Source: Chloracidobacterium sp. (GTDB taxonomy: Bacteria > Acidobacteriota > Blastocatellia > Pyrinomonadales > Pyrinomonadaceae). From it: a stretch of 64,000 bases of DNA. The position numbers were made by a program, and so were the translations under genes. This document shows positions 12,405 to 30,189 of this stretch, in pieces (positions within the stretch are counted from its first letter, which is position 1; each line of letters opens with the position of its first letter). The notes below the pieces were generated by a model. That model worked only from the letters and a program-made list of their open reading frames with translations, searched no databases and was not told the DNA's origin. The stretch spans positions 33,502-97,501 of the forward strand of contig JANMQG010000057.1 of assembly GCA_031370285.1 (NCBI GenBank). Reading direction: 5' to 3'.

Positions 12405-12644
12405 GTTTGAAGTTCCCGCACATGAGTCGCCGTCATCAATGCATAGCACGTAGGGGCTAGTTGGGTGATCGTTGGTCATAACAGTCAATCAAGATAGTCT
12501 TTGATCTTTGGCCCGGCCTCAAATCGATTGCGTGAGACTGAGGTTCGGGTACGTTACAAGAGAAAAGTGAAGGTGTTTTAGACGCCAATCGTTTCCAATT
12601 GCATGTGCTTAAGCGTCTCCGCGGACACGCGCTTGGAAAGATGC

Positions 12645-12758
12645 GTCCATAGCCCCAGATGATCGGCTGCATGAGCCGGCAACATTGCGCTGAGCTAGCC
12701 GCATTTGAGCGCGCTAACTACATGAAAACCTTCGATTCTTACCGGCCCGATTAACTAG
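12645..12758 (+). pseudogene. duplicated 3'-end fragment of the DHOD-like gene
   Basis: 12645-12758 aligns with 12293-12404 (tccatag..gatgatcgg..gcgctaactacatgaaaacc..gattaactag) with roughly a dozen differences. No upstream ORF. Confidence 0.7.
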
Positions 12759-12830
12759 ATCGAATTGAAGCGAGCGAAGTCCTGGGCCATAACGACCTGG
12801 ACGAAACAGCCACCGTTGCCGGTGGCTCAT

Positions 12831-12880
12831 TGGTGGAGCAGACGAGGGTCGAACTCCTGGCCTCCGCATTGGAACGCGGC
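12831..12880 (-). repeat. partial copy of tRNA-Ala(CGC) 3' half (att-like remnant)
   Basis: tggtggagcagacgagggtcgaactcctggcctccgcattggaacgcggc matches 30114-30164 with 1 substitution and 1 indel, in the same orientation as the intact tRNA. Confidence 0.8.
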
Positions 12881-13190
12881 AAAGTAGGACGTACGGCAAG
12901 GGAGGCTTCCCGGTCACTTCAGCCTGCGGAATTCTGCGCATGAGTTCGGCATATTTCGCAGTGAATCACGGTTGATCGTCCGAGAACAAGCCTTCTAACG
13001 CTGGCACAAACGTTGCTGCCCACCTCCTGTAGGCCATCAGTGCTTACTGCCCGCAACGGCGCGCCTGCTGTCTCGTAACTACACCAGCGGGATCAGTCTG
13101 CAGGGAATGATCGCGAGCGCGGCTGGCCCTGAATTAGTAGGACGCCAGTAGCGTCCAATCGAGACGCAATTTCGAAGGGAGCAGTTCGAA

Positions 13191-14141
13191 GTGGAGAAAA
13201 TCAAAGCCATCGATTTCATGTATTACGTGGCCACGAGCGAGTTCATGGAGCAGTGGGACCGCGCCAAGGAAGGGGAGTTGGTCTGCCGGATGGAGAAGGC
13301 GATCGGCGGGTTGCCGCGATTTACTTCCATCGCAGAGATGCTGCGGCAGATGGACGACGCCGGAGTCGAAAAAGTCTTTATCACGCAGTGTAAGATGTGG
13401 TCTTACTGGCGCAAGTGGATGTACATGGACACCAAACTCGAAGACGTGCTCCAGTACACCGAAGCCCATCCCGATCGATTTGTCGGACTCGCCGGTTACA
13501 ACCCGTTTCGCATTAAAGAGAGCCTGACCGAAATCGAACTCGCCGTTACCAAACACGGCTTCAAAGGCGTCTATGTCCACATCTATGGATTCGACATTCC
13601 CTTGAACGACGCGAAGATGTATCCGCTGTTCGCCAAATGCGTCGAGCTCGATGTGCCGGTGTCAATGCAGGTAGGCCACGTGCTCGAGGCCAGTCCCAGC
13701 GATGGCGCGCGGCCGATGTTCCTGGATCGCATCGCCTGCGATTTTCCTGATTTGAAAATGATTGGCGCGCACACCGGCTGGCCCTGGGTCGATGAACTGC
13801 TCTCAGTTTGTTACAAGTGGGAGAACATCTGGTTTGGGGTCGATGCGTGGCTGCCAAAATACCTCTCACCGCAAATCATCCAGTTTATTAATAGCCGAAT
13901 GGGTCGCGATCGTTGTATCTGGGGAACGAATGGTCTGCCGTGGCAAGAGAGCCTCCAGCAGCTTTGCGATTTGGGACTGAAAGAAGAAGTGCAAAGAAAA
14001 CTTCTGCGCGAGAACGCGATCGAGTTATTCAAGTTGGAGCCAAAAGATCGGGCTGATGACATTTCGACCAGCCTCGAAGAGGCGGCATTTAGTAGCACCG
14101 TCCGTGAGGGCGGGGTTGCAGCCAGACGGGAAATGCTCTGA
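13191..14141 (+). CDS. amidohydrolase-2 family protein (ACMSD/LigW-like metal-dependent hydrolase or decarboxylase fold)
   Basis: 316 aa, GTG start. Overall pattern (KAIDF..., GFKGVYVH, MQVGH, IGAHTGWPW, WGTN) recalls the Amidohydrolase_2 family. Confidence 0.7.
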   Translation: MEKIKAIDFMYYVATSEFMEQWDRAKEGELVCRMEKAIGGLPRFTSIAEMLRQMDDAGVEKVFITQCKMWSYWRKWMYMDTKLEDVLQYTEAHPDRFVGLAGYNPFRIKESLTEIELAVTKHGFKGVYVHIYGFDIPLNDAKMYPLFAKCVELDVPVSMQVGHVLEASPSDGARPMFLDRIACDFPDLKMIGAHTGWPWVDELLSVCYKWENIWFGVDAWLPKYLSPQIIQFINSRMGRDRCIWGTNGLPWQESLQQLCDLGLKEEVQRKLLRENAIELFKLEPKDRADDISTSLEEAAFSSTVREGGVAARREML

Positions 14142-14171
14142 GGCTTCGAAGGGCCGGCACCGAACCAATAG

Positions 14172-14945
14172 ATGAGCCTTAATTTCAATGACGAGACAGT
14201 AATCGTAACCGGGGGTGCGCGGGGCATTGGCCGCGCCGTCGTCCAGGCTTTTGCCGCAGCGGGCGCTGATGTTGTCATCGGCGACCTGCGTCTGGAAGAT
14301 GCCAGCCAAACGGCGATGGAGATCAGCGAGAGCAGTGGCCAGCGAGTGGTCGCGGTTCAGACCGACGTGACCAAACGTGAAGATATCGACAGGCTGCGCG
14401 ACGAGACACTGCGCATCTTTGGCAAGATCGATGTGCTGGTCAATTGCGCCGGCTGGGATCGCTTGCTGCCGTTTCTCAAGACGACGTCGGAACTCTGGCA
14501 GAAGGTGCTGAACGTCAACTTCCTGAGCGTGGTCAATATGTGCCACGCAATTCTGCCGCACATGGTTGAGCGCAAGCAGGGTGCAATCGTCAACATCAGT
14601 TCAGACACGGGGCGAGTCGGGTCTTTTGGCGAAGCTCTTTATGCCAGCTCGAAGGCCGCCATCAATGCCTTTTCGAAAACCATCGCGCGCGAACATGCTC
14701 GCGACCATATCCGGGTGAACGTGGTTTCACCCGGGCTGTGCGAAACGCCTTTGATTGAAGAGATGCGACACGACGACGAATTCACGGCGAAGATTCTCGG
14801 CTCGATCGTTAACTTCATTCCGATGAAACGCCTGGGTGAGCCGGAGGAGATTGCGCCCCTGGTTGTGTTTCTGGCTTCTGATTCGGCCAGTTACATCACC
14901 GGCCAGGTCTTCAGTATTAACGGCGGGCTGAACATGGTTGGGTGA
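14172..14945 (+). CDS. short-chain dehydrogenase/reductase (FabG/BadH-like)
   Basis: TGGARGIG cofactor motif, NISS, catalytic YASSKAA. Confidence 0.9.
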   Translation: MSLNFNDETVIVTGGARGIGRAVVQAFAAAGADVVIGDLRLEDASQTAMEISESSGQRVVAVQTDVTKREDIDRLRDETLRIFGKIDVLVNCAGWDRLLPFLKTTSELWQKVLNVNFLSVVNMCHAILPHMVERKQGAIVNISSDTGRVGSFGEALYASSKAAINAFSKTIAREHARDHIRVNVVSPGLCETPLIEEMRHDDEFTAKILGSIVNFIPMKRLGEPEEIAPLVVFLASDSASYITGQVFSINGGLNMVG

Positions 14946-14957
14946 CAAACACTTCGA

Positions 14958-16124
14958 ATGACCGAACCAATCTTTCACGAATGGCAAAACAGATCGCTCG
15001 ACGATGCCATCTACGAATGCCGCGAGCTGTTTGAAGACACGACTTTTCCCACTGTGAAGCGTTGGCGCGAACGTGGCGGGAGAATAGTGGGCCATTTCCA
15101 GGTTAACTTTCCCGAAGAGATCGTTCATGCCGCTGGTCTCTTGCCGTTCAAAGTTCGTGGCGCGCCCATCGAAGCAGTCCAGGCAGACTCACGCTTTGGA
15201 TCGTACCTCTGCTCGATTCTCAAAACTTCGCTCGAACTTGCCCTCAGCAAAACCGTCGAGCTTGAGATGTTCGTTACGCATCCGATTTGCGACGCCGCGC
15301 GCAATCTTGGAGCGGTGTGGGGGCGCAATGTTTCCTATCCCTGTCAGATTCTGTATCTGCCGCAGAACCCGAACTCGCCGCATTCCGTGATCTATCTCCG
15401 CGGCGAATACGAGCGGTTGAAAAGATCCATCGAAGAGATCTCCGGCAAAACGATCACCGACGACGCGCTGCGGAATTCGGTCGCCGTCTTCAACCAGAAT
15501 CGCGCGCTGATGCGCGAGTTGTACGAGATCAAGAAGGATACCCCCTGGCTGGTTTCTGCCGATGAAGCGTACGTGCTGGTGGCGCTGGCGGGACTGATTC
15601 CACGCGACGAACATAACGAACTGCTGCGCACGCTGCTCCCGCAGATTCGCGCGCGTAGGTTGCGAACGCAAGATAAAGTCCGGGTTGTGTTCGAAGGCGG
15701 TTTCTGCGAGCAGCCGCCGCTCGACATGATTCGCGGCATCGCGCGTTCTTGTTACGTAGTCGATGACGATCTGCTGATTGGTCTGCGCTGGTTGCTTGAA
15801 GACGTTCCGCTTGACGGCGATCCGCTCTTCAATCTCGCCGAAGCTTATCTCGAAAAATCTTCATATAGCCCGGTCCAACACGATATGCGCAAGCCGAAAG
15901 AACAGATGCTGCTCGCCCGCATTCGCAACGCGCGGGCCGACGCCGCCATCATCACCGCCGCCAAGATGTGCGAGCCGGGCCTGGAAGAGCAGGTCGCGTA
16001 CACACGCGCGCTGGACGAAGCAGGCATCCCGTATTTCGTTTCGGAATTTGAAGAGAGCATGACCAGCTTTGACTCCATGGAAATTCAATTGGAGACGTTC
16101 GTCGAAAATATTTTGTTTAGCTGA
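14958..16124 (+). CDS. benzoyl-CoA reductase / 2-hydroxyacyl-CoA dehydratase family subunit (BcrC/BadD/HgdB-like)
   Basis: 388 aa. Family pattern [25 protein letters not shown], conserved Cys residues, C-terminal IPYFVSEFE. Confidence 0.8.
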
Positions 16125-16136
16125 TTGCCCAACGAC

Positions 16137-17420
16137 ATGACCCAGACACATGACCTCGTCGGCCGCGGCAACCGTGACGGCGCGGCCTTATTTCAAAGAT
16201 GGTTCACCGAGCTGAATGGTACTGCCGAAACAGGCGGTCAGGCCGCGTATGTTTTCGTCATGGGCAGCATGGCTGAACTGCTGCGCGTCTTTGATCTGCC
16301 AATCGTGATGCCGGAAATTAACTCGCTGCAAACGGCGGTGCGTCGCGTCGCGCACGAGTACCTGGATCAGGCGGAAGACTACGGCTATTCGCCGGACATT
16401 TGCGGTTATGTTAAGGCCGACGTCGCCGTGCAACTCAGACACGGCGAGCATCCGATGGGTCGCATTCCGCCGCCGTCGCTCGCAGTGCTGACGAACGCCT
16501 GCAACACCTACATCAAGTGGGCGGAAATCTGGGAGCGCATGTATCACATTCCGATCTTCACTCTCGACATTCCCGGGACCCGCGCGTGCGGCAAACAGAC
16601 CTGGCCCGGAGAACCTGATTTCGAGAACGACCGCCAGTACGTTCTGGCCCAGGTGAAAGAGTTGATTACGGTTTGCGAGAGTCTCACCGGAAAGCAGTTC
16701 GACATTGATCGCCTGCGCGAGAATTTGCAGCATGCGAACGTCATGAGTCGTGGCTGGCGCCGGGTGCTGGAACTGAACCAGAGTAAGCCGTCGGTCTTTA
16801 ACGCGCTCACCGACGGAACGATTTACCTCGGCGTGTCGAATGGTTTCCGCGGCACAGCCGAAGGCGCGAAGTATTTCGAAGATCTGGTCGAAGAGATGGA
16901 GTTCAAGGCCGCGCACGGTATCGGCACGATGACGGATGAGAAGTACCGGCTGGTGTTCGTCGGTGTTCCCTGCTATCCGATCTTTCGCCGCTTTAACGAG
17001 CTGTTCACCGAATGGGGTGGCACCTTCGTCCACTCGACTTATCTCTGGTTTGCCGCCGGTGGAGTGGCTCACGGGTACGAATACGATTTGAGCAAACCGC
17101 TTGAGAGTTTTGCCGAAGGAGTTCTGATCTACGTGCGCAACGCAATGGACAGCATGTTTTATCAGGACCAGGCGCTGGGCCACATGATCGATCCGTTTCA
17201 TGTCGACGGCGTCGTGTACCACCCGATTAAGAGTTGTCGCACGGTCTCGACCGGCCTGGCCGACAATCGTCGCGCGTTGATGGCGTCGCGTGACATTGCC
17301 AGCCTGTTCATCGAGTCGGACATGATGGATCGCCGTGTGGTGTCAGAGGCCCAGTTGAAGAACCGGGCCGACGCGTTTTTTGAAGGCCTGGCGTCGCGGC
17401 GACTGGCGGCCGCCCGTTGA
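16137..17420 (+). CDS. benzoyl-CoA reductase / 2-hydroxyacyl-CoA dehydratase family subunit (BcrB/BadE/HgdA-like)
   Basis: About 427 aa from ATG 16137 (the ORF opens at TTG 16125). YVFVMGSMAELLRVFDLPIVMPE and DICGYVK motifs typical of the family. Confidence 0.8.
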   Translation: MTQTHDLVGRGNRDGAALFQRWFTELNGTAETGGQAAYVFVMGSMAELLRVFDLPIVMPEINSLQTAVRRVAHEYLDQAEDYGYSPDICGYVKADVAVQLRHGEHPMGRIPPPSLAVLTNACNTYIKWAEIWERMYHIPIFTLDIPGTRACGKQTWPGEPDFENDRQYVLAQVKELITVCESLTGKQFDIDRLRENLQHANVMSRGWRRVLELNQSKPSVFNALTDGTIYLGVSNGFRGTAEGAKYFEDLVEEMEFKAAHGIGTMTDEKYRLVFVGVPCYPIFRRFNELFTEWGGTFVHSTYLWFAAGGVAHGYEYDLSKPLESFAEGVLIYVRNAMDSMFYQDQALGHMIDPFHVDGVVYHPIKSCRTVSTGLADNRRALMASRDIASLFIESDMMDRRVVSEAQLKNRADAFFEGLASRRLAAAR

Positions 17421-17435
17421 ATAGATGGAGTCTGT

Positions 17436-18302
17436 ATGGCATACGCAGCCGGCGTTGACGTCGGATCAACTCAAACCAAAGCAGTCATCATCGACGAAGC
17501 GGGCGAGATCGTTGGCCGCGCGCTGATCGACACGGGCGCCAATGTGATCGCCGCCGCCGAAAACGCTTTCGCCCAAGCCCTCGCCTCCGATTCTCTCGAC
17601 GAGCGCGAAGTCGAATACGTGATCGGCACCGGCTATGGCCGCTATCGCGTGACGTTCGGCAATGCGCAGGTAACCGAGATCAGTTGCCACGGGCGCGGCG
17701 CGGTGCACATGTTTCCGAACACCCGCACGGTGGTCGACATGGGCGGTCAGGACACGAAGGCAATCCGCGTTAACGCGACCGGCGAGATCGTCGACTTTTG
17801 CATGAATGACAAATGCGCTGCCGGCACCGGTAGGTTTCTGGGTGCGGCATCTACTGCGCTGGACATTCCGCTCGACGAGTTGGGCGAAGTTGCGCTGCGC
17901 GCCGAGCGAGCAGTGAAGATCAGCACGACGTGCACAGTCTTCGCAGAGTCTGAAGTTCTCTCCTGGCTGGGCAAAGGGAAGAAGATCGAAGACATCCTCG
18001 CCGGGGTACATCAATCGATCGCGGCGCGCTCGATAGGTTTGTTACGGCGCGTGGGCATCGATCCGGAAGTTACGTTTACCGGAGGCGTCGCAAAGAACAT
18101 CGGCATGATCGCGGCACTTAACAAGGGAATGAATCTGAAGGTGAACGTAAGCGCTGATTCGCATTTCATGGGCGCGCTCGGCGCGGCGCTGTTCGCGCTG
18201 GACCACATCCACGCGAGCCGGGTTCCCGCGGGGGTCCGTGAAGAGGGTAATGCGGGGAAAACGGGCGTCGTTGAGGGGCCGCTGGGAGAGATAACTCTAT
18301 GA
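17436..18302 (+). CDS. BadF/BadG/BcrA/BcrD-type ATPase subunit 1
   Basis: ASKHA-fold N-terminus [22 protein letters not shown], cluster-ligand region [12 protein letters not shown]. Confidence 0.85.
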
Positions 18303-19138
18303 CTTACACCGTCGGCATCGACGTCGGCTCGACCTATACCAAGGCGCTGATTCTTTCCGATGACTTTCGCATCGTCGGCAAGGCGCTGACCAACACCGGT
18401 TTTAAACTTGCCGCAGTCGCACGCAAACTTTTTGATCAGTCTCTTGCACAAGCCGGCCTGAAAGACGCCGATATTGCCTACGTCGTGGCGACCGGTTTTG
18501 GCCGCCACATGGTTCCGTTCAGCAACGTTGCGGTGACGGATCTAACGGCGAGCGCGCGGGGAACGGCGTTTCTTTTTCCCAAGACCCGCACGGTTCTGGA
18601 TGTCGGCGGGCAAACGATGAAGGCGAGCCGCCTCGACGAGACTGCCAAAGTGAGGTCGTTCCGGCTGAACGACAAGTGCGCCGCGGGCACGGGCGCATTC
18701 ATCGAGAAAACCGCGCGCTACATGGGTTACACGACCGAAGAGATTGGGCCGCTGGTCGCCACCTCGAAAGTGGCCGTGCCGATCTCCGGTGTCTGTGCTG
18801 TGTTTGCCGAGTCCGAAGTGATCAATCAACTATCGATGGGCGCACCCCCGGCGGACATCATGCATGGCGCCATCTCGTCGCTGGTTGATCGTTCGGTCCA
18901 ATTGATGAGGCGCGTGCAGATGGAACCCGAATACACACTGATCGGCGGCATCCTGCGCTTCGGCATGATGGCGCGCGTCGTGCGCGAGAAGTTGAACTCA
19001 GAAGTAAACGTTCCCGAGGGCGAGATGGTTCAATACACGACCGCCCTGGGAGCGGCGATTCTGGGCCACCAGCGATTGCGAAAGCTGAAAGAAAGCGGTG
19101 TTGAGGTTTCAAGCGTAACTGAAACGGTGGCGGCGTAA
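18299..19138 (+). CDS. BadF/BadG/BcrA/BcrD-type ATPase subunit 2
   Basis: [35 protein letters not shown]. Overlaps the previous gene by 4 nt (ATGA), suggesting translational coupling. Confidence 0.85.
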
Positions 19139-19156
19139 GCCGGCGACAAATGAAAA

Positions 19157-19178
19157 CGGCAGGGTGCGCGCCCTGCCG
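19157..19178 (+). terminator. GC-rich hairpin after the ATPase gene (weak terminator candidate)
   Basis: cggcaggg-tgcgcg-ccctgccg. The T-run (tttt) starts only 14 nt downstream. Confidence 0.4.
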
Positions 19179-19195
19179 GAAGTGCCTGATTTTAT

Positions 19196-19241
19196 TGGTG
19201 GAGCAGAGGAGGGTCGAACTCCTGGCCTCCGCATTGCGAAC
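19196..19241 (-). repeat. partial copy of tRNA-Ala(CGC) 3' half (att-like remnant)
   Basis: 46 nt tggtggagcagaggagggtcgaactcctggcctccgcattgcgaac identical to 30114-30159, same orientation. Confidence 0.85.
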
Positions 19242-19784
19242 TGGACTACCGGCAAAAACGTAAGTATTTGCCTTTTCGAAAGTTGCGGCCACCGAAGAAA
19301 TATCGAGGTTTTCCCCTCCTTTCCCATTTCTTACCATCGCGCAGCGGTCGCTTGCTGTTATTCTTGTCCACGTATTGGCCACGCGAGAATTGTCAATCAG
19401 GGCGTTTCTAGGAATCCAACTTGGCACCTCAAAACAAGAACCAGCAAATCAGTCAAACCCACAGCCTTCCTGGTCATTAAGAACCGGGCAGTATGTCCTT
19501 TTGTCTTTGAGAGGCCCGGCTTGCCGTTTCCCGATCGTTCCAATCTACCAACAAGTAGGCGAAACCCTGGTCCTACGCCCTCGAGAGTTGTGGTTTAATC
19601 GGCAAAGTGGCGAGCTATGAGAAATAAGATGATTACTCGTATTCGGCTTACGACGTTCACTCCTTCTTTGAGAATGCATGGTAGTATTTTTCCGAAGAAA
19701 CGAATTGTTCAATTATTACCCTAGTTGACCGCGATCAACCGATACGTAGGCCCTTGAGCTGAGGAGACACCTTCCGCTAAAACC

Positions 19785-22601
19785 ATGTCTACTCCTGTCG
19801 GCAAACGTCTTGGCCGTTATGAGATCCGCTCGCTGCTCGGAGTGGGCGGCATGGGTGAAGTCTATCTTGCTCAAGACAGTCAGCTGCGCCGACCGGTGGC
19901 GCTAAAACTTCTGCCGCCGAAATTCACAATCGACGAGGAGCGGCTGCGCCGTTTTAAGCAGGAAGCTCTTGCCGCATCTGCCCTGAACCATCCGAATATT
20001 CTCACGATCCACGAGATCGGCTCAGAAGGCGACACCGATTTTATCGTTACGGAATTTATCGACGGAATCTCGCTGCGCGAGCTCATGGCAAAACAGCCGA
20101 TGTCGATCGGACAGGTACTGGACATCTGTAGCCAAATCGCTTCCGCGCTGGCTGCAGCTCATGCGGCCGGCATCGTGCATCGCGATATTAAGCCAGAGAA
20201 TGTGATGGTCCGACGCGATGGCTATGTAAAGGTGCTCGACTTTGGTCTCGCGAAGCTTACTGAGCTTCCAGGACTGCATAGTGATTCCGAGGCGGCGACG
20301 GTACAAGTGGTGAAGACTGATCCTGGAAAGGTCATGGGCACAGCCAAGTACATGTCTCCCGAACAGGCGCGCGGGTTAGAAGTTAATGAGCAAACCGACA
20401 TCTGGAGTCTGGGAGTCTTACTTTATGAACTGGCCGCAGGGCGGGTTCCTTTTGAAGGACAGACCGGCAGTGACGTTTTGGCGTCGATATTGACCGCCGA
20501 ACCCGTACCTCTGCAACGACATTCGCCCGACATTCCAACCGAACTGCAACGGATCGTGCGTAAAGCATTGCGCAAGGATCGCGAGGAGCGATATCAGTTG
20601 GCCAAGGAGTTGGCCCTGGATCTAAAGAATCTGCGCCGGGAGTTGGAGCTTAACGTCGAAATCGAGATTTCTCAGCAACCTGCTGCGCCCCCTCAGCAAG
20701 CTTTGGGCATAGGCGCCAGCCGGGCGGGCACTAGAAGTTTCCATTCGACTTCGCACACTGCGGAGGTGAATGTCCGAAAGACCAACTCGACTGCCGAATA
20801 CCTCGTAGCGGAAATCAAATCTCATCCCAAAGCCCTCGTGTTTATCCTGGGAGTTATCGGTTTAGCAGCGCTGGCGATCGTGCTGACGGTGGCTTACCGG
20901 TGGACGGCAACACAGTCCTCGTCCAGCAACGTTTCCAGTTCTTTGCGAACCATGAAGATCGCCCGCCTCACAAGCTCCGGCACTGCGGATAAAGCGGCCA
21001 TCTCGCCTGATGGCAAATACCTGGTCCATGTTGCGAGCGAGAGCGGACAGCAGAGTTTGCGCGTGCGTCAGGTCAACACCAACAGTGATGTGCAGATCAT
21101 GCCGCCATCTGACGTGCAATTTGCCGGACTGACTTTTTCGCGGGATGGCGATTTCATCTACTACGTGGCCGCTGAGAAGAACAGCGCTACGTCGAACCTC
21201 TATCAAATCCCCGCATTGGGCGGAAACGAACGAAGACTGTTCTCAAATGTGGGAAGTGCTGTCACGTTCTCGCCCGACGGACAGCAGGTGGCATTCATTC
21301 GCAACTTTCCCGACGCCGGAGAAGATGCATTGATGATCGCGAGCGCCCAGGGTGGCGGCGAACGCAAACTCACTGTGCGCAAGTTGCCAAACTTCTTTCG
21401 CCATGTCGCCTGGTCGCCGGACGGAAAAACAATCGCCTGCAGCGCCGGGAGTTTTGTTCCCAGCTACACCACCTATGTTGTTGATGTAGCATTGGAAAGC
21501 GGCAAAGAGAAACAGATCGGAACTCAAAGCTGGATGTTTATGGGCCAGCTGGCCTGGATAGGTGATGGTAGTGCCCTAATTCTTGCCGCCTCGGAACAAG
21601 AGTCGGGTAGTTTTGATGCGCAACAGATCTGGTACGTCTCTTATCCTGAAGGTGGAGCGCGACGGGTTACGAACGACTTGAATGATTACACAGGAGTTAG
21701 TCTGACGTCCGACTCGAATCGTCTGGTGACCGTTCAGTCTGAAACGAGTGCGAATGTTTGGATCGTGCCGAATGGTGACGCGAATCGGGCAACCCGAACC
21801 ACCACCGGGACGGGCAAGATCGATGGGCGCGACGGCCTCGCCTCGACCCCTGAGGGAAAGATCGTCTACGCCTCGAAGGCCAGCGGCAATTTGGATCTTT
21901 GGATGATGAATGGCGACGGCACTAATCAAAGGCAGTTGACAGAAAACTCGCGTATCAACAGTCACCCTGCGGTATCGCCCGATGGTCGTTACATTGTCTT
22001 CGCTTCGGATCGCACCGGAGCGTCAAACATCTGGCGCACCGACATAGATGGCAGCAATGCCCGACAGTTAACCAGGGGCAGCGGCGAAGACAATCCGCAA
22101 TGTTCGCCGGACGGTAAATGGGTTGTTTACACCTTGCTGGGCGCAGGGAAGCCAACCCTCTGGCGCGTCTCAATTGATGGCGGAGCTGCTCAGGAACTCA
22201 CCGATAAGTATACCGCCGCTGCGGCTCTCTCGCCCGACGGTAAATCGCTGGCCTGCCTCTATCGCGAAGAACAACCCAATTCGCCGCTCAAACTGGCAAT
22301 CTTTCCTCTCGAAGGAGGAGAGCTAACGCGTGTCTTTGATGCGCCAATTCCCGCCGAGGAAGTATCGCTCGTGCCACCGCCCCGCTGGACAACGAATGGC
22401 CGAGCGCTGACCTACGTTGTGACAAGCGCAGGTGTTTCTAATATCTGGCTTCAGCCGATCGACGGCGGGGCGCCCAGACAGCTGACCATGTTCAGCGCCG
22501 ACCGCATCTTCTCATTTGAGTGGTCGCGCGATGGCAAGCAACTCTTAGTCGCCCGCGGCATGGTGGCGAGCGACGTCGTATTGATTAGTAATTTTCGTTG
22601 A
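19785..22601 (+). CDS. Ser/Thr protein kinase with TM segment and C-terminal TolB-like beta-propeller repeats
   Basis: Kinase motifs GVGGMGEVY, HRDIKPEN, DFGLA. TM ALVFILGVIGLAALAIVLTVAY. Repeated SPDGK/SPDGR propeller blades. Confidence 0.85.
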   Translation: MSTPVGKRLGRYEIRSLLGVGGMGEVYLAQDSQLRRPVALKLLPPKFTIDEERLRRFKQEALAASALNHPNILTIHEIGSEGDTDFIVTEFIDGISLRELMAKQPMSIGQVLDICSQIASALAAAHAAGIVHRDIKPENVMVRRDGYVKVLDFGLAKLTELPGLHSDSEAATVQVVKTDPGKVMGTAKYMSPEQARGLEVNEQTDIWSLGVLLYELAAGRVPFEGQTGSDVLASILTAEPVPLQRHSPDIPTELQRIVRKALRKDREERYQLAKELALDLKNLRRELELNVEIEISQQPAAPPQQALGIGASRAGTRSFHSTSHTAEVNVRKTNSTAEYLVAEIKSHPKALVFILGVIGLAALAIVLTVAYRWTATQSSSSNVSSSLRTMKIARLTSSGTADKAAISPDGKYLVHVASESGQQSLRVRQVNTNSDVQIMPPSDVQFAGLTFSRDGDFIYYVAAEKNSATSNLYQIPALGGNERRLFSNVGSAVTFSPDGQQVAFIRNFPDAGEDALMIASAQGGGERKLTVRKLPNFFRHVAWSPDGKTIACSAGSFVPSYTTYVVDVALESGKEKQIGTQSWMFMGQLAWIGDGSALILAASEQESGSFDAQQIWYVSYPEGGARRVTNDLNDYTGVSLTSDSNRLVTVQSETSANVWIVPNGDANRATRTTTGTGKIDGRDGLASTPEGKIVYASKASGNLDLWMMNGDGTNQRQLTENSRINSHPAVSPDGRYIVFASDRTGASNIWRTDIDGSNARQLTRGSGEDNPQCSPDGKWVVYTLLGAGKPTLWRVSIDGGAAQELTDKYTAAAALSPDGKSLACLYREEQPNSPLKLAIFPLEGGELTRVFDAPIPAEEVSLVPPPRWTTNGRALTYVVTSAGVSNIWLQPIDGGAPRQLTMFSADRIFSFEWSRDGKQLLVARGMVASDVVLISNFR

Positions 22602-22620
22602 GAGGTTAACGCCGGCTAGG

Positions 22621-23229
22621 CTACTGCTTGATCACTCTTAAATTCTTCAGTGCCGACCCTACTTCTTCGTTGTTCGGCCGCTGCTTGTAGTCGGTCTCGA
22701 CTTTGATCCAGGCGACTCGTCCGTCCTCATCGATAATGTAAACCGTGGCGTGCGGAATGCCCTCAAATTTCTGCCCATTGTAAGCCGAGTCGCGAACTCC
22801 ATATGCGTCGATCACCCGATGAGCGGGGTCGGACAAGATTGGAAAGTTGACTTCTCCTTTGCCGTCGGCGGCAATCTGCTCAGCAAACTGTCTGCTTTCG
22901 GCCGGACTGTCAACGCTGACTGCATAGAAGCGAACCTGCTCTTCTTGTTTTACCAATGAACGCAGCCCGGCCAACTGCCGAGCACAGTAGGGTCACCAGT
23001 TGCCTCGATAAAAGACAAGGACTGTGGGCATGCTGCCGCGCGCGGAGGAGAGTGTAACTTTTCGATTGTTTTGATCATCGAGTGTAAAGTCGGGAGCCAT
23101 CTCACCGACCGCGACCGGCGAATTACGAGGCTTCAAGTCGCCGTCGCTCGAGGAAGATGAGTTGAGCTTCGTAGTACACGCGATGCTTCCGATGATTAGG
23201 GTGATTGCTCCCGCAACTCTGAGATTCAT
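22621..23229 (-). CDS. lipoprotein-type peroxiredoxin-like (AhpC/TSA-redoxin) protein with in-frame TGA at 22993-22995; selenoprotein candidate or pseudogene
   Basis: ORFs 22993-23229 and 22621-22974 are in one frame. The junction reads VLVFYRGNW-TGA-PYCARQLAGL, so the stop replaces the first Cys of the WCPxC redox motif. Signal/lipobox LIIGSIAC. Confidence 0.6.
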
Positions 23230-23872
23230 AAGCCTGACATCCTAACGAGTATTCTATGATGTGTGCAGCCGGGTATTCCTTCTTCGTTCGCCGGTAACAG
23301 TATTACAAAATTGCAGTTCGGGCAAAGCAAACTCTATTTCTGGCGTTTGAACGCATGAATCTCTTGGCGGGGATCCAGCCGTATCTAACGTCGGTCAAAA
23401 GAGTGGCTTCGCTGTTAGCCCTCTTTGTTCCGCTTGCCATCTTCGGGATTCGATTTCTGACGGGGAAGTTCAAAGCAAGGCTCTGACACTGCGCATCATT
23501 AAGCTTCGCACTTCGAATACTCAGAATCAAAATGTGATGATTAGAGGTGTTATTCAGGCTAATATCTTGACTATGATATTTTGCCGTTCCTAACCAAGGA
23601 GACCGTCTCACGATATGAAAGTGGTCAGAGGCGCGCGCCGAGCAAAAGCGTCGCGCCCAAAATGGATGGGCCAAACCTGGAAACGTATCGTCCAATATTG
23701 ATCTTCATTCTGATCTCCTCATTCTAAAAAAGCGTACCGTCGAGGTGCGGAACGATGGATTTACTCCAGGTCTTGCCGCCATCTTTCGACCTGGCGATGT
23801 TCCAGCCAACGCGGTTTTCCAAGGGTTTTATACGCTTATATATGGAGCTTAACGCAACCGCCGTAGATTTAT

Positions 23873-23912
23873 CTGTAGCGACGTCACAACGGCGTCACAA
23901 GAAGATGAGCGC
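23873..23912. repeat. left copy of about 40-bp direct repeat containing CGTCACAA x2
   Basis: ctgtagcgacgtcacaacggcgtcacaagaagatgagcgc versus ctgcagccgcgtcacaacggcgtcacaagagaaaatgagagc at 30030-30072. Confidence 0.7.
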
Positions 23913-23953
23913 GCAGGCAGAGTTTGAATACCCAGCCATTGAGTAGGCAACTA

Positions 23954-26900
23954 CTAACCGTGGATGCGCAGACAGGCATAGTCAACAACGATAGCGCCGT
24001 AGGACAGTGAGAGACCCTCGACTTCCGGGCGAGCAAAGCGGTAAGTCTGCTCGTGAAAGAGAGGAAGCAGCAGTCTGTCCCGCGCGATGATTTCTTCGAC
24101 CTGTCGATAGATACCATGTCTAGCCGCCGGTGATGTTTCTAATCGTCCCCGTGCTATCAGACGGTCAACTTCGGCTGAGCCACACAGTTTTCCTAAATAT
24201 CCATTCTTGGTACTCAGGATGTTTGCGAAGGTGTCGGCATCAGGATAATCCGCGCCCCAGCGCCCCAGAACTATATCGACGGAACCCTGTAACAGCGCCT
24301 CCTGCAATTCATTCATCGTCTTGTTCACGGTGCGAAATTTTATCTGGTGATCGCTGACCGAGCGCGAGATCTCACGCGCGAGAGCTGAATATTCCCCAAA
24401 AAACACCGGGTTTACGGCAGCGGTCAATTCGACTTTCACGTCTGGCTGTTCGGACGCGGATGTAGATGGAACAGGCATTCTCGGCGTGTATGCAGAATCA
24501 TGACCAAGCAGTCCAGGCGGTATGAGTCCCTGGGCTGGGACCGCGAGTCGTCCCAGGGTCTGACGCACCACGCTCGCAACGTCGATCGACCGCGCCAGCG
24601 TCTGGCGCAGGCGTTTGTCCTTCAGTGGTCCGCGTTGACAGTTGAATGCCGCGTAGTAGGTTATGAGGTTCGGGATCTCGTGATAACCGGAGGCAAACTC
24701 AGGATCGCGCCGCAGCGCCTCTGCGTCCGCAGGCAACAGATCGGCCGCCAGCGAAAATCGACCGGCGCGGAACTGCGAGAGGATGTCCGCCGGGGCGACA
24801 CCGAAATTAAAATTGAGTCGTTCAATTCTCGGATAGCCACTGCGCCAGTAGTTTCGGTTTCGCTCGAGCTCAAGGCGCACGCCTGGCTCAAACTTTAAAA
24901 CGCGAAAAGGGCCGGTTCCCACGCTACCTTCTTGCCAGCTTGCCCCAAACTTGTCGCTGCCTTCAGGGACGATGGCCGCTGCGTGATAAGAAATGAGCGC
25001 CGGGAAGAATGAGACCGGCTCGTCGAGCTCGATCGTAAACTCATTGGCTGAGTGAATGCGAAAGCCGGCAAGGTCGGAAGCCTCACCGTTCAGGAGCGTC
25101 TTAGCGCCGCGAATGGGTGCATAGAAGAAGCGTCCAAGACTTTCCGGGTTCAGTAGCAGCCTTTCAAACGAGTAGCGAACATCGCGCGCGGTCAGTTTGC
25201 GTCCATCATGGAAGCGAACATCATCCCGGAGGCGGAAACGATATCTCCTACCTCCCTGTTCAGCCGTGAAATCTGTAGCCAGCCAGGGAACGATGCGAGC
25301 GCCACCGACATCGCGAGTCAGGGTTTCGAAAATGCTCGGCAGCACCTCTGAATCTTCTACGGTGCCCGCCAGTGAGGGATCGACGTGGTTGAGTGTGCCT
25401 GTTATCGGGACTTCAATCGTGCCACCGCCGGCCCGCAGGGTGTCGGTCGCTCTGGCCGCCGATTCTAACTTGCCTATCTCGGCATAGTTAACATATGGAG
25501 CGCTGCCATAAAGGTTAAGCCCGCGAACCTTTGAGTTGGCAAGGCGATAATCGACATCGTGAAACAGCGGTAACACAATTCCTGATTCCTGCAAAAAACT
25601 TTCGTACTTCCGATACAGTGATGCCCTGACACCGGGACGGCTTTCGGTACGCGCCTCTTCGAGTATCTGATCCCCTTCGGCCGAGGAGATGTAAGTGCGG
25701 TATAGACCCACACGTGAATGGAAGAGACCATAGGTAAAGTCGTCCGGGTCATCATAGTCAGCATTCCATCTGCCGATGAACACATCTATTCCCGCACTAC
25801 TCTGGAAAGATTCCAGGTAAGAGGCCATCGTGGGTGTCGCGACCTCAACTTTCACACCGAGCTCCGACCAGATTGAGAGCAGACTTGTCAGTAGCGATTC
25901 ATATCGATCCAGAAACAAAGGATGTACGGCCGCCCTGAGCTTGATTGGATCGGTGATGCCGGCTGAGCGCAGCATGGATGAGGTCTCGTCGCGAGTGAGT
26001 GTTTGGCGCCGCCTTCCCGGATCATACCCAAGCATCCCGGGTGGAATCAGGCAGACGGCAGGCTGCGCAAACCGCCCAAGTGTTTGCCAAACCAGATCGT
26101 GCGTGCGCACTACGCCGGAGAGTGCTCGACGAAGGTCGAGATTTTGGGCGACTGAACCACTCGTCGAATTGAATATCAGGAAGTAAGTGTTCTTGCGCGG
26201 AGACTCGACCAACCCGCCGCGAAAGCGTGGGTCGCGAAGAAACTCTTCAAGATCCTGAGGCGATAGATCGCGTGCGAGGTCAATCGAGCCTGACCGCAAC
26301 CCTGAAGCTATCTCAGCAGCGCTGAGCCCGGCCCGAAATTCAACCTCATCAAGATGCGCGGAAGAACCCTTCCAGTATTTTTCATTACGCTCGAGCACGA
26401 TGCGGTCGGGCCTATACGAGGCCATGCGAAACGGACCCGTGCCAATCGGAATCGAATCGGTCTTTCCCGCAGCAACGTCGCTTAGGGTGATGCCGGTCTT
26501 GTAATCTGTCAGTAGGGCAGGATAGATGGAAAGTGGGTCAGGCAACTGTATTTCCAATTTGTAATCTGCATGGACCACAATTCCAACAAGCTCCTCGTCA
26601 TTGCTCGCCGTCCTTGCGAATTCGGCCGCGCCACGGATCGCCGCGAGTCCCGGAGGTAGCTCACGAGCTACACGAATGCTCCGCTCGAAGGAACGTTTGA
26701 CAGCCTGAGCGGTCAGGGCCTGACCATTCTGGAAGCGGACGTTTTCTCGCAGTGTAAAGAAAACCGAAGTGCCGTCCTCGGACACTTCCCATTTCTCGCA
26801 GAGAGCCGGAACTAAATTGCCTTCGAGATCTGTCGCCAATAAAGTCTCAAAGACGTTTGCTAAAATCTCCTGCTCTTCCACCAGTTCCATATTGACGGGA

Positions 26901-29629
26901 TCAATGTCGCCGAGCGGGGTGGCCAAAGCCACGACCAGTCTGCCCCCCTTTGGTATCTCTTCCTGGAGTTCGGTTTCCTTTGCAGCCGGAGCCAGGGAAA
27001 CTGCCTCTTCGAGGTAATCGTTGGCTTTCTCATACTCTCCACGAAGGTTGGCGAGGGTGGCCGCCAAAGACAGCGCATGCCTCAGGCTATCGGTGTCTCC
27101 CACCGCGTGCGCAGCGTCAATAACCTGCTGCACCAGTCGCGTTGTCTCCTCGACCTTTCTGGCTTGCCAGGCAGTCTCCGCGGCGAGCAGGAGTGCTGCG
27201 ACTGCTCGCGGCTTTTGATTTTCACGTTCCAGGATCCGTCCCGCACTCTCTGCCTCTTTTAGTGCAGCATCGACGTCTCCCGCGATGCGGTGGGCCTGAG
27301 CCAGGAGCATTCGTGCTTCACCTTCGAGAGCCGGATCACCTTCCCATTCCTCATCAAGAAACTCGAGTACTGTCTTCGCGGCGCGAGCTGCTTCTTCGGG
27401 GCTGAAAGCATCAAGCGCTGCCTTAGCCATGCGCAACCCATACTCAACTGTCTTGTCGGGGACGTCACCCTGGGAGAAGTGGTGGACCAATTGTGGGTAG
27501 ACGCGCTCGAGTCTGCCGCCGTGACGCTTCTCAACTTCCTCAGCATATTTCCGGTGCAACGACCTTCGCTTGCGGCGGGCAATTGCACCGTAAAGCACGT
27601 CGCGAACGACGCCGCTCGAAAACACCAGGCGATCACCTCTCGACTCCCGTTCTTCCTCAAGGAGTCCCTCTTCTACCAGACGGTCAATCGCGTCCTCAAC
27701 ATCCTTTGCACCGGCCAGCGCTTCCAGGTCGCGAAAGTCAAAAGCCTTGCCGATAACTGAAGCAATCGACAGAATCTCACGCAGTTCTTCAGGTAGACGC
27801 TCGATACGTTTTTCGACCGCCTGTTGAATGGTGGCCGGCAAATCGCCGGTTGAGAGATCAGTGGCAGCACCGAGACTCCAGGCTCCTGTTTGATCCTTTG
27901 CGATGCCGCCTGAATCAAGCAGCGAGCGGACCAGTTCCTTAGTGAAGAATGGGTTGCCCTCAGTTCCTTCATAAAGTTTTTCGACGAGGCTGTCGGCTAG
28001 TTTAGGTCCGCCTATCAGTGTTTCGAGAAACAGGCGATGTTCCGCGGGTGAGAAAGGTCCCAGCGGGATTGCGGAAAAACGGCGGTCCCCGCGGAAACTT
28101 TCAAGCATTCGGAGCAGCGGATGGTTACGGCTGTCTACTTCACTTGACCGGTACGTCCCAACAATCAGCGTGGGAGTTGGTCCTAATCGACGAACGATGT
28201 ATTGCAATGCTTCAATGGATATCTCTGCCGCATGAAGATCTTCGAGGAAAAGAATCAGCGGCTTTCCCGCTGCCAGGCGTGTGAGCGTTCGCGCCAGTAG
28301 TTCAAAAACCTGGGTGCGGTTTTCGGGTCCCTGTGATCCGCCAAGCGATCCTCCAGACTGGGCCAACTTGGAGTCACCAGTCGCGGCGGCGCGAATCTCG
28401 CTGATCTCTGTAAGCATGGGAAACAACGACACGAGATCGGGGGCAACATCCGACAGCTCTAACATGTTGTCGGGAGAGCTGGCGCTATCCTTCAGCCGGA
28501 AGTATTCCTGAATTGCTTCACAGAACCCTTGATACGGGAAGGCGCCATCCTGCTCAATCGATCGGCCATGAAGGACGAGAAGCTTGCGGGCTTTGGCCAG
28601 GTTTTCTATCTCGTCGAGCAATCGTGTCTTACCGACGCCGGGCTCGCCTGACACCACGACAAATTGGCACTCACCGCTAATGGCGGCATTGAGTCGCTTC
28701 TGCAACTCAGCCTGCTCCTTCTCTCGGCCGATGAAGGGAGAGAGCGCCACACGCGGCATCATCAACGTCTTGGTCATTACCACTGATTTGCCGAGGTCGC
28801 TCTGGTGCAATCGGGTTTGACAGCGCCTTAAGGAATCAGCAACTTCACTTGCTCGCTGTGGTCGCTTTCCAGGCTCCTTGGCTATGCAGGCGAGTATGGC
28901 TTCCTCGAGGTCCTCATTAATCTCCGCACCCAATGAGCGCGGCGACTGGGGAATCTCATGAACTATTCGATAGAGTATCGATTGAAGTTCGCCCGAGAAT
29001 GGCGGTTCGCCAGTAAGACACTCGTAGAGAACAGTGCCGAGAGAATAAATGTCCGAGCGATGGTCCACTGCGTTAGCCGCCACTTGCTCCGGACTCATGT
29101 ATGAGAGAGTTCCTGCAATAGTGCCGGTCTTGGTAATGCGACTCTCTGTGGCGCCTCTGGCCAGACCAAAGTCCATGATCCGCACCCTGACACGAGCACC
29201 ATCCTCCCGCGTCGCCATGATGTTCTCCGGTTTTATGTCCCGGTGCGTTACGCCGCGTGAATGGCTGTATTCGAGTGCTTCGGAAACCTGGATGCCAATG
29301 TCGATAACTTCGCCCAGCGTCAGCGCGCCTTCGCGCTCGAACCAGCGCAGGTTCGTTCCCTGGAGAACGGGCATGACAAAAAAGAGCGATCCTTCGTGTT
29401 TGCCAAAGTCGAAGATTGGCACGATTGCTGGATGGTCCATCTGGGCCACCAGCTGCGCTTCGCGTTGGAAGCGTTGTTCCGTTTCGGGGTTCAGCAGTGT
29501 TGGAGGAATAAGCTTGACGGCTACTTCACGGTTCAATAGCGGGTCATGCGCGCGGTAGACCACGCCCATTCCGCCGCGGCCCAACTCCGACTTGATTTCG
29601 TATCGGTTAGAAAGCGTTTGACCAATCAT
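23954..29629 (-). CDS. multidomain Ser/Thr kinase - AAA/STAND ATPase - TPR-like region - two tandem family-5 solute-binding (peptide/nickel SBP) domains
   Basis: Start taken at ATG 29629 (GGAGGG RBS); the ORF opens at TTG 29656. Kinase GRGGMGVVY/HRDIKPEN/DFGLA. Walker A SGEPGVGKTRLLDE. Two SBP5-like modules each with DP...FETL...VRFxxG..LTA..V..SFER. No TM or signal peptide seen. Confidence 0.85.
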   Translation of the reverse strand: MIGQTLSNRYEIKSELGRGGMGVVYRAHDPLLNREVAVKLIPPTLLNPETEQRFQREAQLVAQMDHPAIVPIFDFGKHEGSLFFVMPVLQGTNLRWFEREGALTLGEVIDIGIQVSEALEYSHSRGVTHRDIKPENIMATREDGARVRVRIMDFGLARGATESRITKTGTIAGTLSYMSPEQVAANAVDHRSDIYSLGTVLYECLTGEPPFSGELQSILYRIVHEIPQSPRSLGAEINEDLEEAILACIAKEPGKRPQRASEVADSLRRCQTRLHQSDLGKSVVMTKTLMMPRVALSPFIGREKEQAELQKRLNAAISGECQFVVVSGEPGVGKTRLLDEIENLAKARKLLVLHGRSIEQDGAFPYQGFCEAIQEYFRLKDSASSPDNMLELSDVAPDLVSLFPMLTEISEIRAAATGDSKLAQSGGSLGGSQGPENRTQVFELLARTLTRLAAGKPLILFLEDLHAAEISIEALQYIVRRLGPTPTLIVGTYRSSEVDSRNHPLLRMLESFRGDRRFSAIPLGPFSPAEHRLFLETLIGGPKLADSLVEKLYEGTEGNPFFTKELVRSLLDSGGIAKDQTGAWSLGAATDLSTGDLPATIQQAVEKRIERLPEELREILSIASVIGKAFDFRDLEALAGAKDVEDAIDRLVEEGLLEEERESRGDRLVFSSGVVRDVLYGAIARRKRRSLHRKYAEEVEKRHGGRLERVYPQLVHHFSQGDVPDKTVEYGLRMAKAALDAFSPEEAARAAKTVLEFLDEEWEGDPALEGEARMLLAQAHRIAGDVDAALKEAESAGRILERENQKPRAVAALLLAAETAWQARKVEETTRLVQQVIDAAHAVGDTDSLRHALSLAATLANLRGEYEKANDYLEEAVSLAPAAKETELQEEIPKGGRLVVALATPLGDIDPVNMELVEEQEILANVFETLLATDLEGNLVPALCEKWEVSEDGTSVFFTLRENVRFQNGQALTAQAVKRSFERSIRVARELPPGLAAIRGAAEFARTASNDEELVGIVVHADYKLEIQLPDPLSIYPALLTDYKTGITLSDVAAGKTDSIPIGTGPFRMASYRPDRIVLERNEKYWKGSSAHLDEVEFRAGLSAAEIASGLRSGSIDLARDLSPQDLEEFLRDPRFRGGLVESPRKNTYFLIFNSTSGSVAQNLDLRRALSGVVRTHDLVWQTLGRFAQPAVCLIPPGMLGYDPGRRRQTLTRDETSSMLRSAGITDPIKLRAAVHPLFLDRYESLLTSLLSIWSELGVKVEVATPTMASYLESFQSSAGIDVFIGRWNADYDDPDDFTYGLFHSRVGLYRTYISSAEGDQILEEARTESRPGVRASLYRKYESFLQESGIVLPLFHDVDYRLANSKVRGLNLYGSAPYVNYAEIGKLESAARATDTLRAGGGTIEVPITGTLNHVDPSLAGTVEDSEVLPSIFETLTRDVGGARIVPWLATDFTAEQGGRRYRFRLRDDVRFHDGRKLTARDVRYSFERLLLNPESLGRFFYAPIRGAKTLLNGEASDLAGFRIHSANEFTIELDEPVSFFPALISYHAAAIVPEGSDKFGASWQEGSVGTGPFRVLKFEPGVRLELERNRNYWRSGYPRIERLNFNFGVAPADILSQFRAGRFSLAADLLPADAEALRRDPEFASGYHEIPNLITYYAAFNCQRGPLKDKRLRQTLARSIDVASVVRQTLGRLAVPAQGLIPPGLLGHDSAYTPRMPVPSTSASEQPDVKVELTAAVNPVFFGEYSALAREISRSVSDHQIKFRTVNKTMNELQEALLQGSVDIVLGRWGADYPDADTFANILSTKNGYLGKLCGSAEVDRLIARGRLETSPAARHGIYRQVEEIIARDRLLLPLFHEQTYRFARPEVEGLSLSYGAIVVDYACLRIHG

Positions 29630-30029
29630 CTTCCCTCCATGAAGAAACAAAGTCAAAAAGGTGTGAGAGGAACTCCTTCGTTAGGATGAGGAAAGAGAAC
29701 CCTTGTTGAGGGCGCTCTGTACTACTGAGCCAAGCGGTGACGGAAGTTGTAATGATAGGGCAGACCCTTACGGATTGTATAGAGGTGCGCACGAACGAGC
29801 GGGGACTAAGGTTGGCAAGTCAGGTGATGATGTTCGCGCGGCGCTTAAGACGAGGTAAGCGCTCAACCGTACTTCCCAATGCTGGTCAGGAGTCTCAAAT
29901 CCTAAGTCGAATCGCCCACGATTTGAATCTCTGACCTCCGCGTTGCACTTGGCCTCAATCACCTTTCGAACACTCTTAAGCCAAACAAAATCACATATTA
30001 TTCGAACGTCTGACTTCCGCGATCCGGCT

Positions 30030-30072
30030 CTGCAGCCGCGTCACAACGGCGTCACAAGAGAAAATGAGAGCT
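30030..30072. repeat. right copy of about 40-bp direct repeat containing CGTCACAA x2
   Basis: See 23873-23912. Lies 42 bp from the 3' end of tRNA-Ala. Confidence 0.7.
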
Positions 30073-30113
30073 AGACGAACTGCTGCTGGAAATCTTTGAA
30101 AATCGAAGGGTTT

Positions 30114-30189
30114 TGGTGGAGCAGAGGAGGGTCGAACTCCTGGCCTCCGCATTGCGAACGCGGCGCTCTGCCAACTGAGCTACTGCCCC
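30114..30189 (-). tRNA. tRNA-Ala (anticodon CGC), CCA encoded
   Basis: Reverse complement folds as a cloverleaf: GGGGCAG-TA-GCTC-AGTTGGCA-GAGC-G-CCGCG-TTCGCAA-TGCGG-AGGCC-AGGAG-TTCGACC-CTCCT-CTGCTCC-A-CCA. Carries the G3:U70 alanine identity pair. Confidence 0.93.

Follow-up and report, generated by a model that had tools for sequence, protein, structure and literature searches.

We analyzed a window of 64,000 nucleotides (the whole stretch described here, with positions counted from its first letter) from Chloracidobacterium sp., a member of the Pyrinomonadaceae (Acidobacteriota), taken from contig JANMQG010000057.1 of assembly GCA_031370285.1. The window contains an intact tRNA-Ala(CGC) gene, and the 17.3 kb downstream of this gene are quite probably an accretion array of decayed integrative elements. 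The array comprises at least three segments bounded by attachment (att) sites and records at least four integration events. An initial annotation made from the sequence alone had proposed successive integrations of two islands at this tRNA. The att scars and the succession of events stand; the number of segments is revised upward, since the stretch at 19.24-30.11 kb, taken there as one island, is a composite with an att arm (the Y element described below) inside it. Outward from the tRNA, we refer to the segments as A1 and A2, which together make up this composite, and B.

The tRNA-Ala(CGC) gene lies at 30114-30189 on the minus strand with its CCA end encoded, and is the sole tRNA called by ARAGORN in the window. 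Its 3′-terminal 46 nt (30114-30159; TGGTGGAGCAGAGGAGGGTCGAACTCCTGGCCTCCGCATTGCGAAC) recur exactly at 19196-19241 on the same strand, and this displaced att core (copy 1, tRNA positions 31-76) and the tRNA itself remain the only matches to the 46-mer in the window when up to three mismatches are allowed. By chance none would be expected (0 matches in 100 shuffles). Copy 2 (12831-12880, minus strand, tRNA positions 26-76) is degenerate, with 48 of 50 positions identical to the tRNA plus one gap; the substitution falls in the T-stem and the gap reflects deletion of G35, the middle anticodon base. All three sequences are in direct orientation, and both copies are on the 3′ side of the tRNA. The exact repeat, the 50-nt copy with one substitution and one indel, and the placement and orientation of both, all reported in the initial annotation, are thus confirmed. 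The combination of an intact tRNA gene with fragments of the same tRNA, in direct orientation and on its 3′ side, is the one by which Islander recognizes genomic islands, and the shared core corresponds to the canonical att sublocation of the anticodon-arm-to-CCA type. In the window, the fragments begin with tRNA position 31 (copy 1) and 26 (copy 2), and in related genomes (L046, L029, L063, L098) with positions 26-32. Since copy 1 is exact and copy 2 degenerate, copy 1 is the younger, as an accretion model predicts, and copy 2 is the oldest surviving att core.

The same locus was surveyed by a scan of one genome per species, yielding 80 loci (L001-L080) from Blastocatellia/Pyrinomonadaceae metagenome-assembled genomes of the Acidobacteriota. 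In the window, the first gene on the core side of the tRNA encodes an AlaX-like alanyl-tRNA editing protein (30660-31916, minus strand; Pfam), and an M61 peptidase gene follows it. An exact-sequence look-up returned no record of this AlaX protein. AlaX is found in 80 of 80 loci at 67-87% identity, the order M61-AlaX-tRNA-Ala(CGC) is kept in nearly all of them, and the tRNA is full-length in 55. The window is syntenic with its relatives from 30.1 to 48 kb, and synteny stops exactly at the tRNA. Downstream of it, 151 of 191 open reading frames (ORFs) in the relatives (79%) are singletons, and 28 of the 80 contigs end in the tRNA, just past it or in the AlaX-tRNA spacer. Given this synteny stop and the hypervariable downstream content, core and flexible genome are sharply divided at the tRNA throughout the family.

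The core side shows two features of its own. The gene for the AlaX-like trans-editing factor sits directly upstream of the tRNA for the same amino acid, and this pairing is conserved in most of the 80 loci. In addition, two closer relatives carry a module of ~7-8 kb encoding CHASE2, hypothetical and CHAT-TPR proteins between AlaX and the tRNA (L092, 3377-11436; L093, 1401-8614), that is, on the 5′ side of the tRNA, which is otherwise invariant.

Relatives with occupied sites reveal the elements that use this tRNA. More specifically, a Phage_integrase family ORF of 365-398 aa (E = 1e-27 to 1e-30) lies on the opposite strand 11-18 nt past the tRNA, and a profile built for these integrases matched in at least 15 loci, in each case immediately past the tRNA. 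The integrases fall into two clades, subtype 1 and subtypes 2-5, which are 38-40% identical to each other. In L003, L013, L015 and L031 the integrase is followed by a TrwC relaxase and then by a TrwB-type coupling protein (T4CP), and elements with this set of genes at the tRNA are integrative and conjugative elements (ICEs) or integrative and mobilizable elements (IMEs). Other loci form a decay series, in which the integrase passes from intact to frameshifted (L064) and truncated (L052, L070), then to a remnant of 36 aa that accompanies a displaced partial tRNA (L063) and to a bare stub after an intact tRNA (L041, L038). [quoted passage not shown]

Sequences following the tRNA share a layout consisting of ~20 nt, a type-specific GC hairpin with a T-run, and a type-specific direct-repeat motif; in integrase-bearing loci, hairpin and motif are contained in the last ~20 integrase codons, on the other strand. 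Remains of such integrase ends are found on the outer flanks of both displaced copies in the window. Next to copy 1, the beta stub (19141-19195, minus strand) contains a terminator-like hairpin at 19157-19178 followed by a T-run, which is the region's top terminator-like site (fold -19.1 kcal/mol). Together with the tRNA half, this stub has ~90% DNA identity to the integrase-proximal junction of subtype-1 loci (L003, L013, L015, L048, L062 and others), and positions 19146-19178 on the plus strand encode TNENGRVRALP, which matches the last 11 residues of subtype-1 integrases at 9 positions (tblastn). Next to copy 2, the gamma stub (12789-12830, minus strand) contains the hairpin GAGCCACCGGCAACGGTGGCTG at 12807-12828 (fold -17.3 kcal/mol, z = -2.3), identical at 21 of 22 positions to the type found in L078, L069 and L060 (subtype-3-like). 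Here, positions 12789-12827 on the plus strand encode TTWTKQPPLPVA, with 9 of 13 residues like the C-terminus of the L078-type integrase (tblastn). Because the gamma stub lies beyond copy 2, it indicates a fourth, older integration event. Both stubs were probably kept since the hairpin terminated the tRNA while the respective copy was its working 3′ end.

Apart from these stubs, the window is devoid of recognizable mobility genes. Pfam annotation of all major ORFs found no integrase, excisionase, transposase or conjugation gene anywhere in the window; PF00589 is absent from the major ORFs, and the relatives' integrase profile has no match among the six-frame ORFs. Searches by tblastn and profile for remnants of integrase, TrwC, T4CP and other ICE genes in the window returned only the two C-terminal integrase stubs. 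The earlier observation that no integrase is visible is therefore correct for ORFs and has to be amended for the remnants of 11-13 integrase codons. The view that the islands are decayed gains support from the integrase-less segments, the integrase-end stubs and the integrases located directly after the same tRNA in relatives.

On their inner sides, the att sites are accompanied by conserved arms. Directly after the intact tRNA, the alpha flank (30032-30113, minus strand) lacks both hairpin and integrase and constitutes the proximal (P′-type) arm of A1, with the motif GTGACGCCGTTGTGACG at 30039-30055, 57 nt past the tRNA. Flanks of this type follow the tRNA or a partial copy in L009, L025, L026, L034, L046, L028, L022, L037, L029 and L098, and the same motif is found within the 3′ end of subtype-4 integrase genes (L051, L064, L059). 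The motif recurs at 23882-23898 in the Y element (23796-23906, minus strand), the distal (P-type) arm of A1, so that the giant kinase gene between them (described below) is bracketed by type-matched arms. Y is 77-80% identical to the sequence directly 5′ of partial tRNA copies in L046 and L029; the window departs from these two loci inside the GGCTG/CAAC block of Y at ~23796, where the partial tRNA would be expected. In L097, where Y follows the same kinase, a truncated tRNA fragment is still present beyond it. Given this counterpart, the Y arm marks a third att boundary at ~23.8 kb, the core of which was deleted along with the proximal end of the next unit.

The X element (19242-19390, minus strand), adjoining copy 1, is the distal (P-type) arm of A2, with the motif GTGGCCAATACGTGGACA at 19365-19382 and a GTGGCCGCAAC block at 19282-19292. 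In L023 and L063, the stretch that precedes the partial tRNA copies on their 5′ side is ~83% identical to X, and X is also present in L098, where an X arm and a partial tRNA precede an alpha-kinase unit; the X motif lies within the 3′ end of subtype-2/3 integrase genes (L031, L045, L071, L078). We also considered X plus copy 1 as a tmRNA-like or tRNA-like structured RNA and rejected this idea, as ARAGORN finds nothing there and the identity to the tRNA includes the anticodon arm. Judged by sequence, GTGACGCCGTTGTGACG and GTGGCCAATNNGTGGACA may be integrase-binding arm motifs. In integrase-less flanks, the alpha motif is the most conserved block (0.96 versus 0.69 overall; 12 independent loci), and the second motif shows the same pattern (0.92 versus 0.61; 11 independent loci). 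Proximal and distal arms are type-matched in four independent units, namely alpha with Y (A1 of the window and L046), epsilon with X (L023) and delta with X (L063). Homology between arms extends beyond the motif in the same orientation, over ~35 nt for alpha and Y (30020-30056 and 23860-23899) and ~60 nt for epsilon and X in relatives, so that both the arm block and the tRNA core form direct repeats around each unit.

Preservation of the att sites varies among segments. A1 retains both arms and has lost its distal core, A2 retains its distal arm and core only, and B has both cores (that of copy 2 degenerate) and no recognizable distal arm. Taken as a composite, A1 plus A2 has exact 46-nt cores at both bounds with arms of different types. 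No further arm motif was found left of copy 2 or elsewhere in the window, and a distal arm of subtype-1 (beta) elements was seen in none of the fetched loci.

Two relatives document such a unit as an insertion. L046 and L026 are colinear apart from an integrase-less alpha-to-Y unit of 7.3 kb in L046, which has the tRNA on one side and a displaced partial tRNA, followed by its flank, on the other. This occupied/empty pair, the only clean one and formed by two relatives, shows that units of the alpha-to-Y type are discrete insertions. Past the att site, the ECF-sigma region of the two loci (L026, 12052-14029; L046, 19372-21310) is 85.5% identical, compared with 70-80% for the upstream core, which suggests that this 'flank' is itself exchanged DNA. 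Units in other relatives have their own particularities. In L063, the unit between the tRNA and its partial copy (11286-18680) encodes an IS3-family transposase, a GmrSD_N (DUF262) protein and an nSTAND1-LRR NTPase, a defence-like cargo, and the end of the insertion sequence interrupts the arm motif, which is interrupted at the same position in L053. L073 (1744-2000) has an intact tRNA, hairpin, X motif and the remaining X arm followed by a fragment that resembles the 3′ half of another tRNA (GGTTCGATC T-loop); it looks like an att-like unit without cargo, and ARAGORN calls only one tRNA in it.

From these data, we propose the following history. Each new element would enter the intact tRNA and rebuild its 3′ half from its own attP, displacing the older 3′ half outward together with all DNA behind it. 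Later deletions would strip the integrase and transfer genes, leaving displaced tRNA halves, integrase-end/terminator stubs of 40-55 nt, the X, Y and alpha arms and, between them, cargo worth keeping. Read outward from the tRNA, the array would then consist of A1 (alpha arm, giant kinase, Y arm, core deleted), A2 (redoxin, STK-PD40 kinase, X arm), copy 1, the beta stub, B (a six-gene operon), copy 2 and the gamma stub, followed by DHODH-like and PFOR genes. With no integrase in the window and arms that are mismatched or missing, the segments are most likely immobile relics of the type known as cis-mobilizable elements (CIMEs).

The cargo of A1 (23954-29656, minus strand; Pfam) is a Ser/Thr kinase of 1900 aa with an AAA_16 (STAND-like) domain and two SBP_bac_5 domains, the latter of the periplasmic solute-binding type. 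Its orthologues, 67-90% identical, occur at 80 soil metagenome loci (L094-L173), mostly away from any tRNA, with homology stopping at the gene edges; such giant kinases are often clustered with STK-PD40 paralogues. A2 carries an STK-PD40 kinase gene (19785-22601, plus strand; Pfam) and a gene for an AhpC/TSA-type redoxin (22621-23229, minus strand; Pfam and translation). The latter is a single ORF of 202 codons with an in-frame UGA at 22993-22995, where the motif FYRGNW-U-PYC (UxxC) places the TGA codon at the catalytic cysteine. With the UGA read through, the full Pfam profile is matched at E = 6e-32. The N-terminus is lipoprotein-like, and 12 nt past the UGA a hairpin of 7 bp begins. On these sequence features, the redoxin is probably a selenoprotein. 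The Prx-like gene noted earlier in this segment is thus an AhpC/TSA redoxin and probably an intact selenoprotein gene, and the idea of a Prx fragment as evidence of decay was discarded in favor of one ORF with an in-frame UGA.

Segment B contains an operon of six co-directional genes (13191-19138, plus strand; Pfam and NCBIfam) encoding an amidohydrolase_2 protein, a BadH-like SDR, BcrC-like and BcrB-like proteins (HGD-D subunits) and two BcrA/D-like ATPases. All subunits score under the NCBIfam equivalog cut-offs for benzoyl-CoA reductase (BCR), which makes 'BCR-like' a fair label. The operon is intact in many family members at 80-95% protein identity, with different neighbours each time, and so moves as a block among relatives; in L081, L084, L085, L087 and L088, homology to the window stops at ~12925 and 19138, and no tRNA pieces surround the operon in these five genomes. 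The genes to the left of copy 2 (DHODH-like, PFOR, Hsp20, FeoB and radical-SAM genes) are ordinary. Across 7704-19138, the window thus places a BcrCBAD-like ATP-dependent reductase/dehydratase operon near PFOR and a DHODH-like protein. Pyrinomonadaceae are described mostly as aerobic.

Several observations weigh against reading the 17.3 kb as accreted elements. The operon lies within ~45 nt and 3 nt of the scars that bound it, in a segment without a recognizable distal arm, and its arrival inside an element is inferred from topology only. GC and tetranucleotide profiles of the window are nearly flat, with segment B alone mildly deviant (z = +2.3), so the comparison of the segments with their flanks that had been suggested earlier gave almost no signal; composition neither supports nor refutes acquisition. 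Cargo divergence is about that of the core, with a top identity of 95% for BcrAD and 92% for AlaX in the same database. For the window's own segments, GTDB species, closer metagenome relatives and run contigs yielded neither an empty site nor a form with a single segment, and this comparison, also proposed at the outset, gave only the L046/L026 pair among relatives; in closer relatives (AlaX 86-92%), contigs stop at the tRNA or hold unrelated insertions. In none of the 80 surveyed loci does a gene from 1-30.1 kb of the window occur within 10 kb past the tRNA, which leaves the far flank unanchored as well. The protein matches of the stubs are not significant by themselves (E = 0.7-3), so that the case for integrase ends rests on the DNA-level identity of the flanks. 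Finally, all short contigs from the independent public runs X1 and X2 end within the exact 46-mer, and segment order across copy 1 and the tRNA thus lacks independent confirmation.

Some of these points would fit an alternative, which we regard as rather unlikely, in which the att scars are real and the intervening genes are native, placed there by later deletions and rearrangements or by homologous replacement. Both the operon and the giant kinase are typical of the family; in relatives they lie elsewhere on the chromosome, in many contexts, and they show core-like divergence and composition. The operon fits tightly against the scars with no distal arm, and the clustering of giant kinases with STK-PD40 paralogues in many genomes resembles A1 plus A2. 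Against this, DNA between direct repeats of the tRNA 3′ half must have come with or after an integration, A1 keeps both matched arms, and the alpha-kinase-Y unit recurs at the tRNA-Ala array of L097 and L098. Moreover, transfer by ICEs within the family would yield the same missing compositional signal. Any transfer of the operon or the giant kinase was either old or within the family, and for such family-typical cargo the reading as acquired foreign islands is weaker than that of DNA captured or left behind inside an array bounded by att sites.

A second alternative treats the array as still being shuffled, with the integrase-less alpha-to-Y and epsilon- or delta-to-X cassettes keeping functional att arms and being live satellites moved in trans by cognate ICE integrases that the genome or its community encodes elsewhere. 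The strong conservation of the arm motifs in integrase-less flanks, the matching of arm types in four units with different cargo and the discrete insertion of an integrase-less unit in L046 relative to L026 would all be expected of such cassettes. The kinase unit also occupies different array positions in the window and in L098, and copy 1 is still identical to the tRNA at 46 of 46 positions. On the other side, the core copy of A1 and the proximal end of A2 are gone, B has no arms, the window has no integrase, and motif conservation is equally explicable by recent common descent of the flanks or by another DNA-binding function. No circle junction or excised form was found in the run contigs; as these public-run data consist of ~1-kb Logan contigs that break in the repeat, they have no power to detect such forms. 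Two joints that might have been taken as excision products (12827 to 30113 and 12827 to 19195) were rejected, since they extend over only ~22 nt on one side and match the L069-type flank (tRNA plus gamma hairpin) of other organisms. Live mobility of the segments therefore seems to us doubtful, and the same tentative standing applies to the wider proposition that the Pyrinomonadaceae host a family of integrase-less cassettes with type-matched att arms and a tRNA-Ala core, moved in trans by co-resident ICEs. If this were true, the locus would be an integron-like array that relocates family operons between genomes and chromosomal positions, with the BCR-like reductase, giant kinases and defence genes among the relocated cargo.

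A mis-join across the 46-nt repeat, with segment A (A1 plus A2) perhaps representing a separate circle or DNA from elsewhere, is compatible with the contig breaks in X1 and X2; it is very improbable, as the segments have even depth in runs containing this genome, an independent contig covering 12000-15114 with one difference confirms the junction at copy 2, and the architecture of arm, partial tRNA and stub or flank recurs in the long-contig relatives L023, L046, L063 and L098. The notion that tandem duplication of the tRNA gene produced the copies as pseudogenes, or that they belong to a dispersed repeat with no link to site-specific integration, could appeal to their shared orientation and to the missing integrase ORF and is effectively refuted, because a low-stringency search of the 64 kb revealed no tRNA-derived piece beyond the three copies, all downstream of a single tRNA, the outer flank of each copy matches the 3′ end of a different integrase subtype, conserved arms lie on the inner side, fragments start at the anticodon arm, and integrases occupy the same place in relatives. 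We accordingly retain the accretion array of decayed elements as the best account of the region.

Integration into tRNA genes, decay and accretion constitute a well-known, textbook mechanism. A literature search found no description of this locus or element family in the Pyrinomonadaceae, and this is apparently the first record of a family-wide integration hotspot in this abundant and poorly studied soil and sediment group of Acidobacteriota, together with the integrase/ICE family that uses it. All stages are represented at the locus, with the intact element at one end of the series and the bare scar at the other. In annotation terms, it accounts for assembly breaks at the tRNA and exemplifies a region that integrase-based island finders would miss. 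Its att anatomy combines a core of 46-51 nt and type-specific arm motifs with a hairpin that is at once tRNA terminator and integrase C-terminus, and it allows trans-mobilization of units lacking an integrase to be tested directly at this locus.

Among known systems, ICEs and IMEs of the MOBF type, with TrwC and a VirD4/TrwB-type coupling protein, resemble the elements of L003, L013, L015 and L031, which have the order integrase-TrwC-T4CP at the same tRNA; the window differs in having none of these genes, only 11-13 integrase codons. The anticodon-centred att type is known from Islander (PMC4383910), and the att sublocations are those of Williams 2002 (PMC100330), as summarized in 10.1101/2020.11.02.365908. 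Like the window, Islander islands feature an intact tDNA regenerated by the element, a displaced 3′ fragment (anticodon arm to CCA) in direct orientation that marks the end, and tandem arrays at one tDNA. However, the algorithm needs a tyrosine integrase gene per island, and the segments of the window, which have none, would be filtered out. The tycheposon islands of Prochlorococcus also lie next to tRNAs, where successive integrations push older elements outward (10.1101/2020.12.28.424599). They share with our locus the hypervariable tRNA-adjacent islands and the scattered partial tRNAs and fragmented integrases as remnants; unlike tycheposons, which have their own recombinase and replication modules, the intact relatives in Pyrinomonadaceae look conjugative or mobilizable (TrwC, T4CP).

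A further close parallel is the CIME/accretion model, in which an element integrates at the 3′ end of a target gene, decays while keeping its att sites and is joined by the next element to form tandem arrays (PMC5704250). CIMEs and accretion are described for the ICESt1/ICESt3 family of Streptococcus thermophilus, for which PMC5704250 cites Pavlovic 2004 and Bellanger 2011. The window differs in belonging to the Acidobacteriota, in its unrelated integrase family and in being more decayed than a textbook CIME, with one core deleted and arms mismatched or missing, and the integrase and relaxase by which an ICE or IME is defined are both absent from it. It resembles CIMEs in its integrase-less segments, separated by att cores and accompanied by integrase stubs. 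Derivation from an ICE or IME by decay is likewise apparent in these integrase-end stubs, in the decay series and in the intact ICEs or IMEs of relatives.

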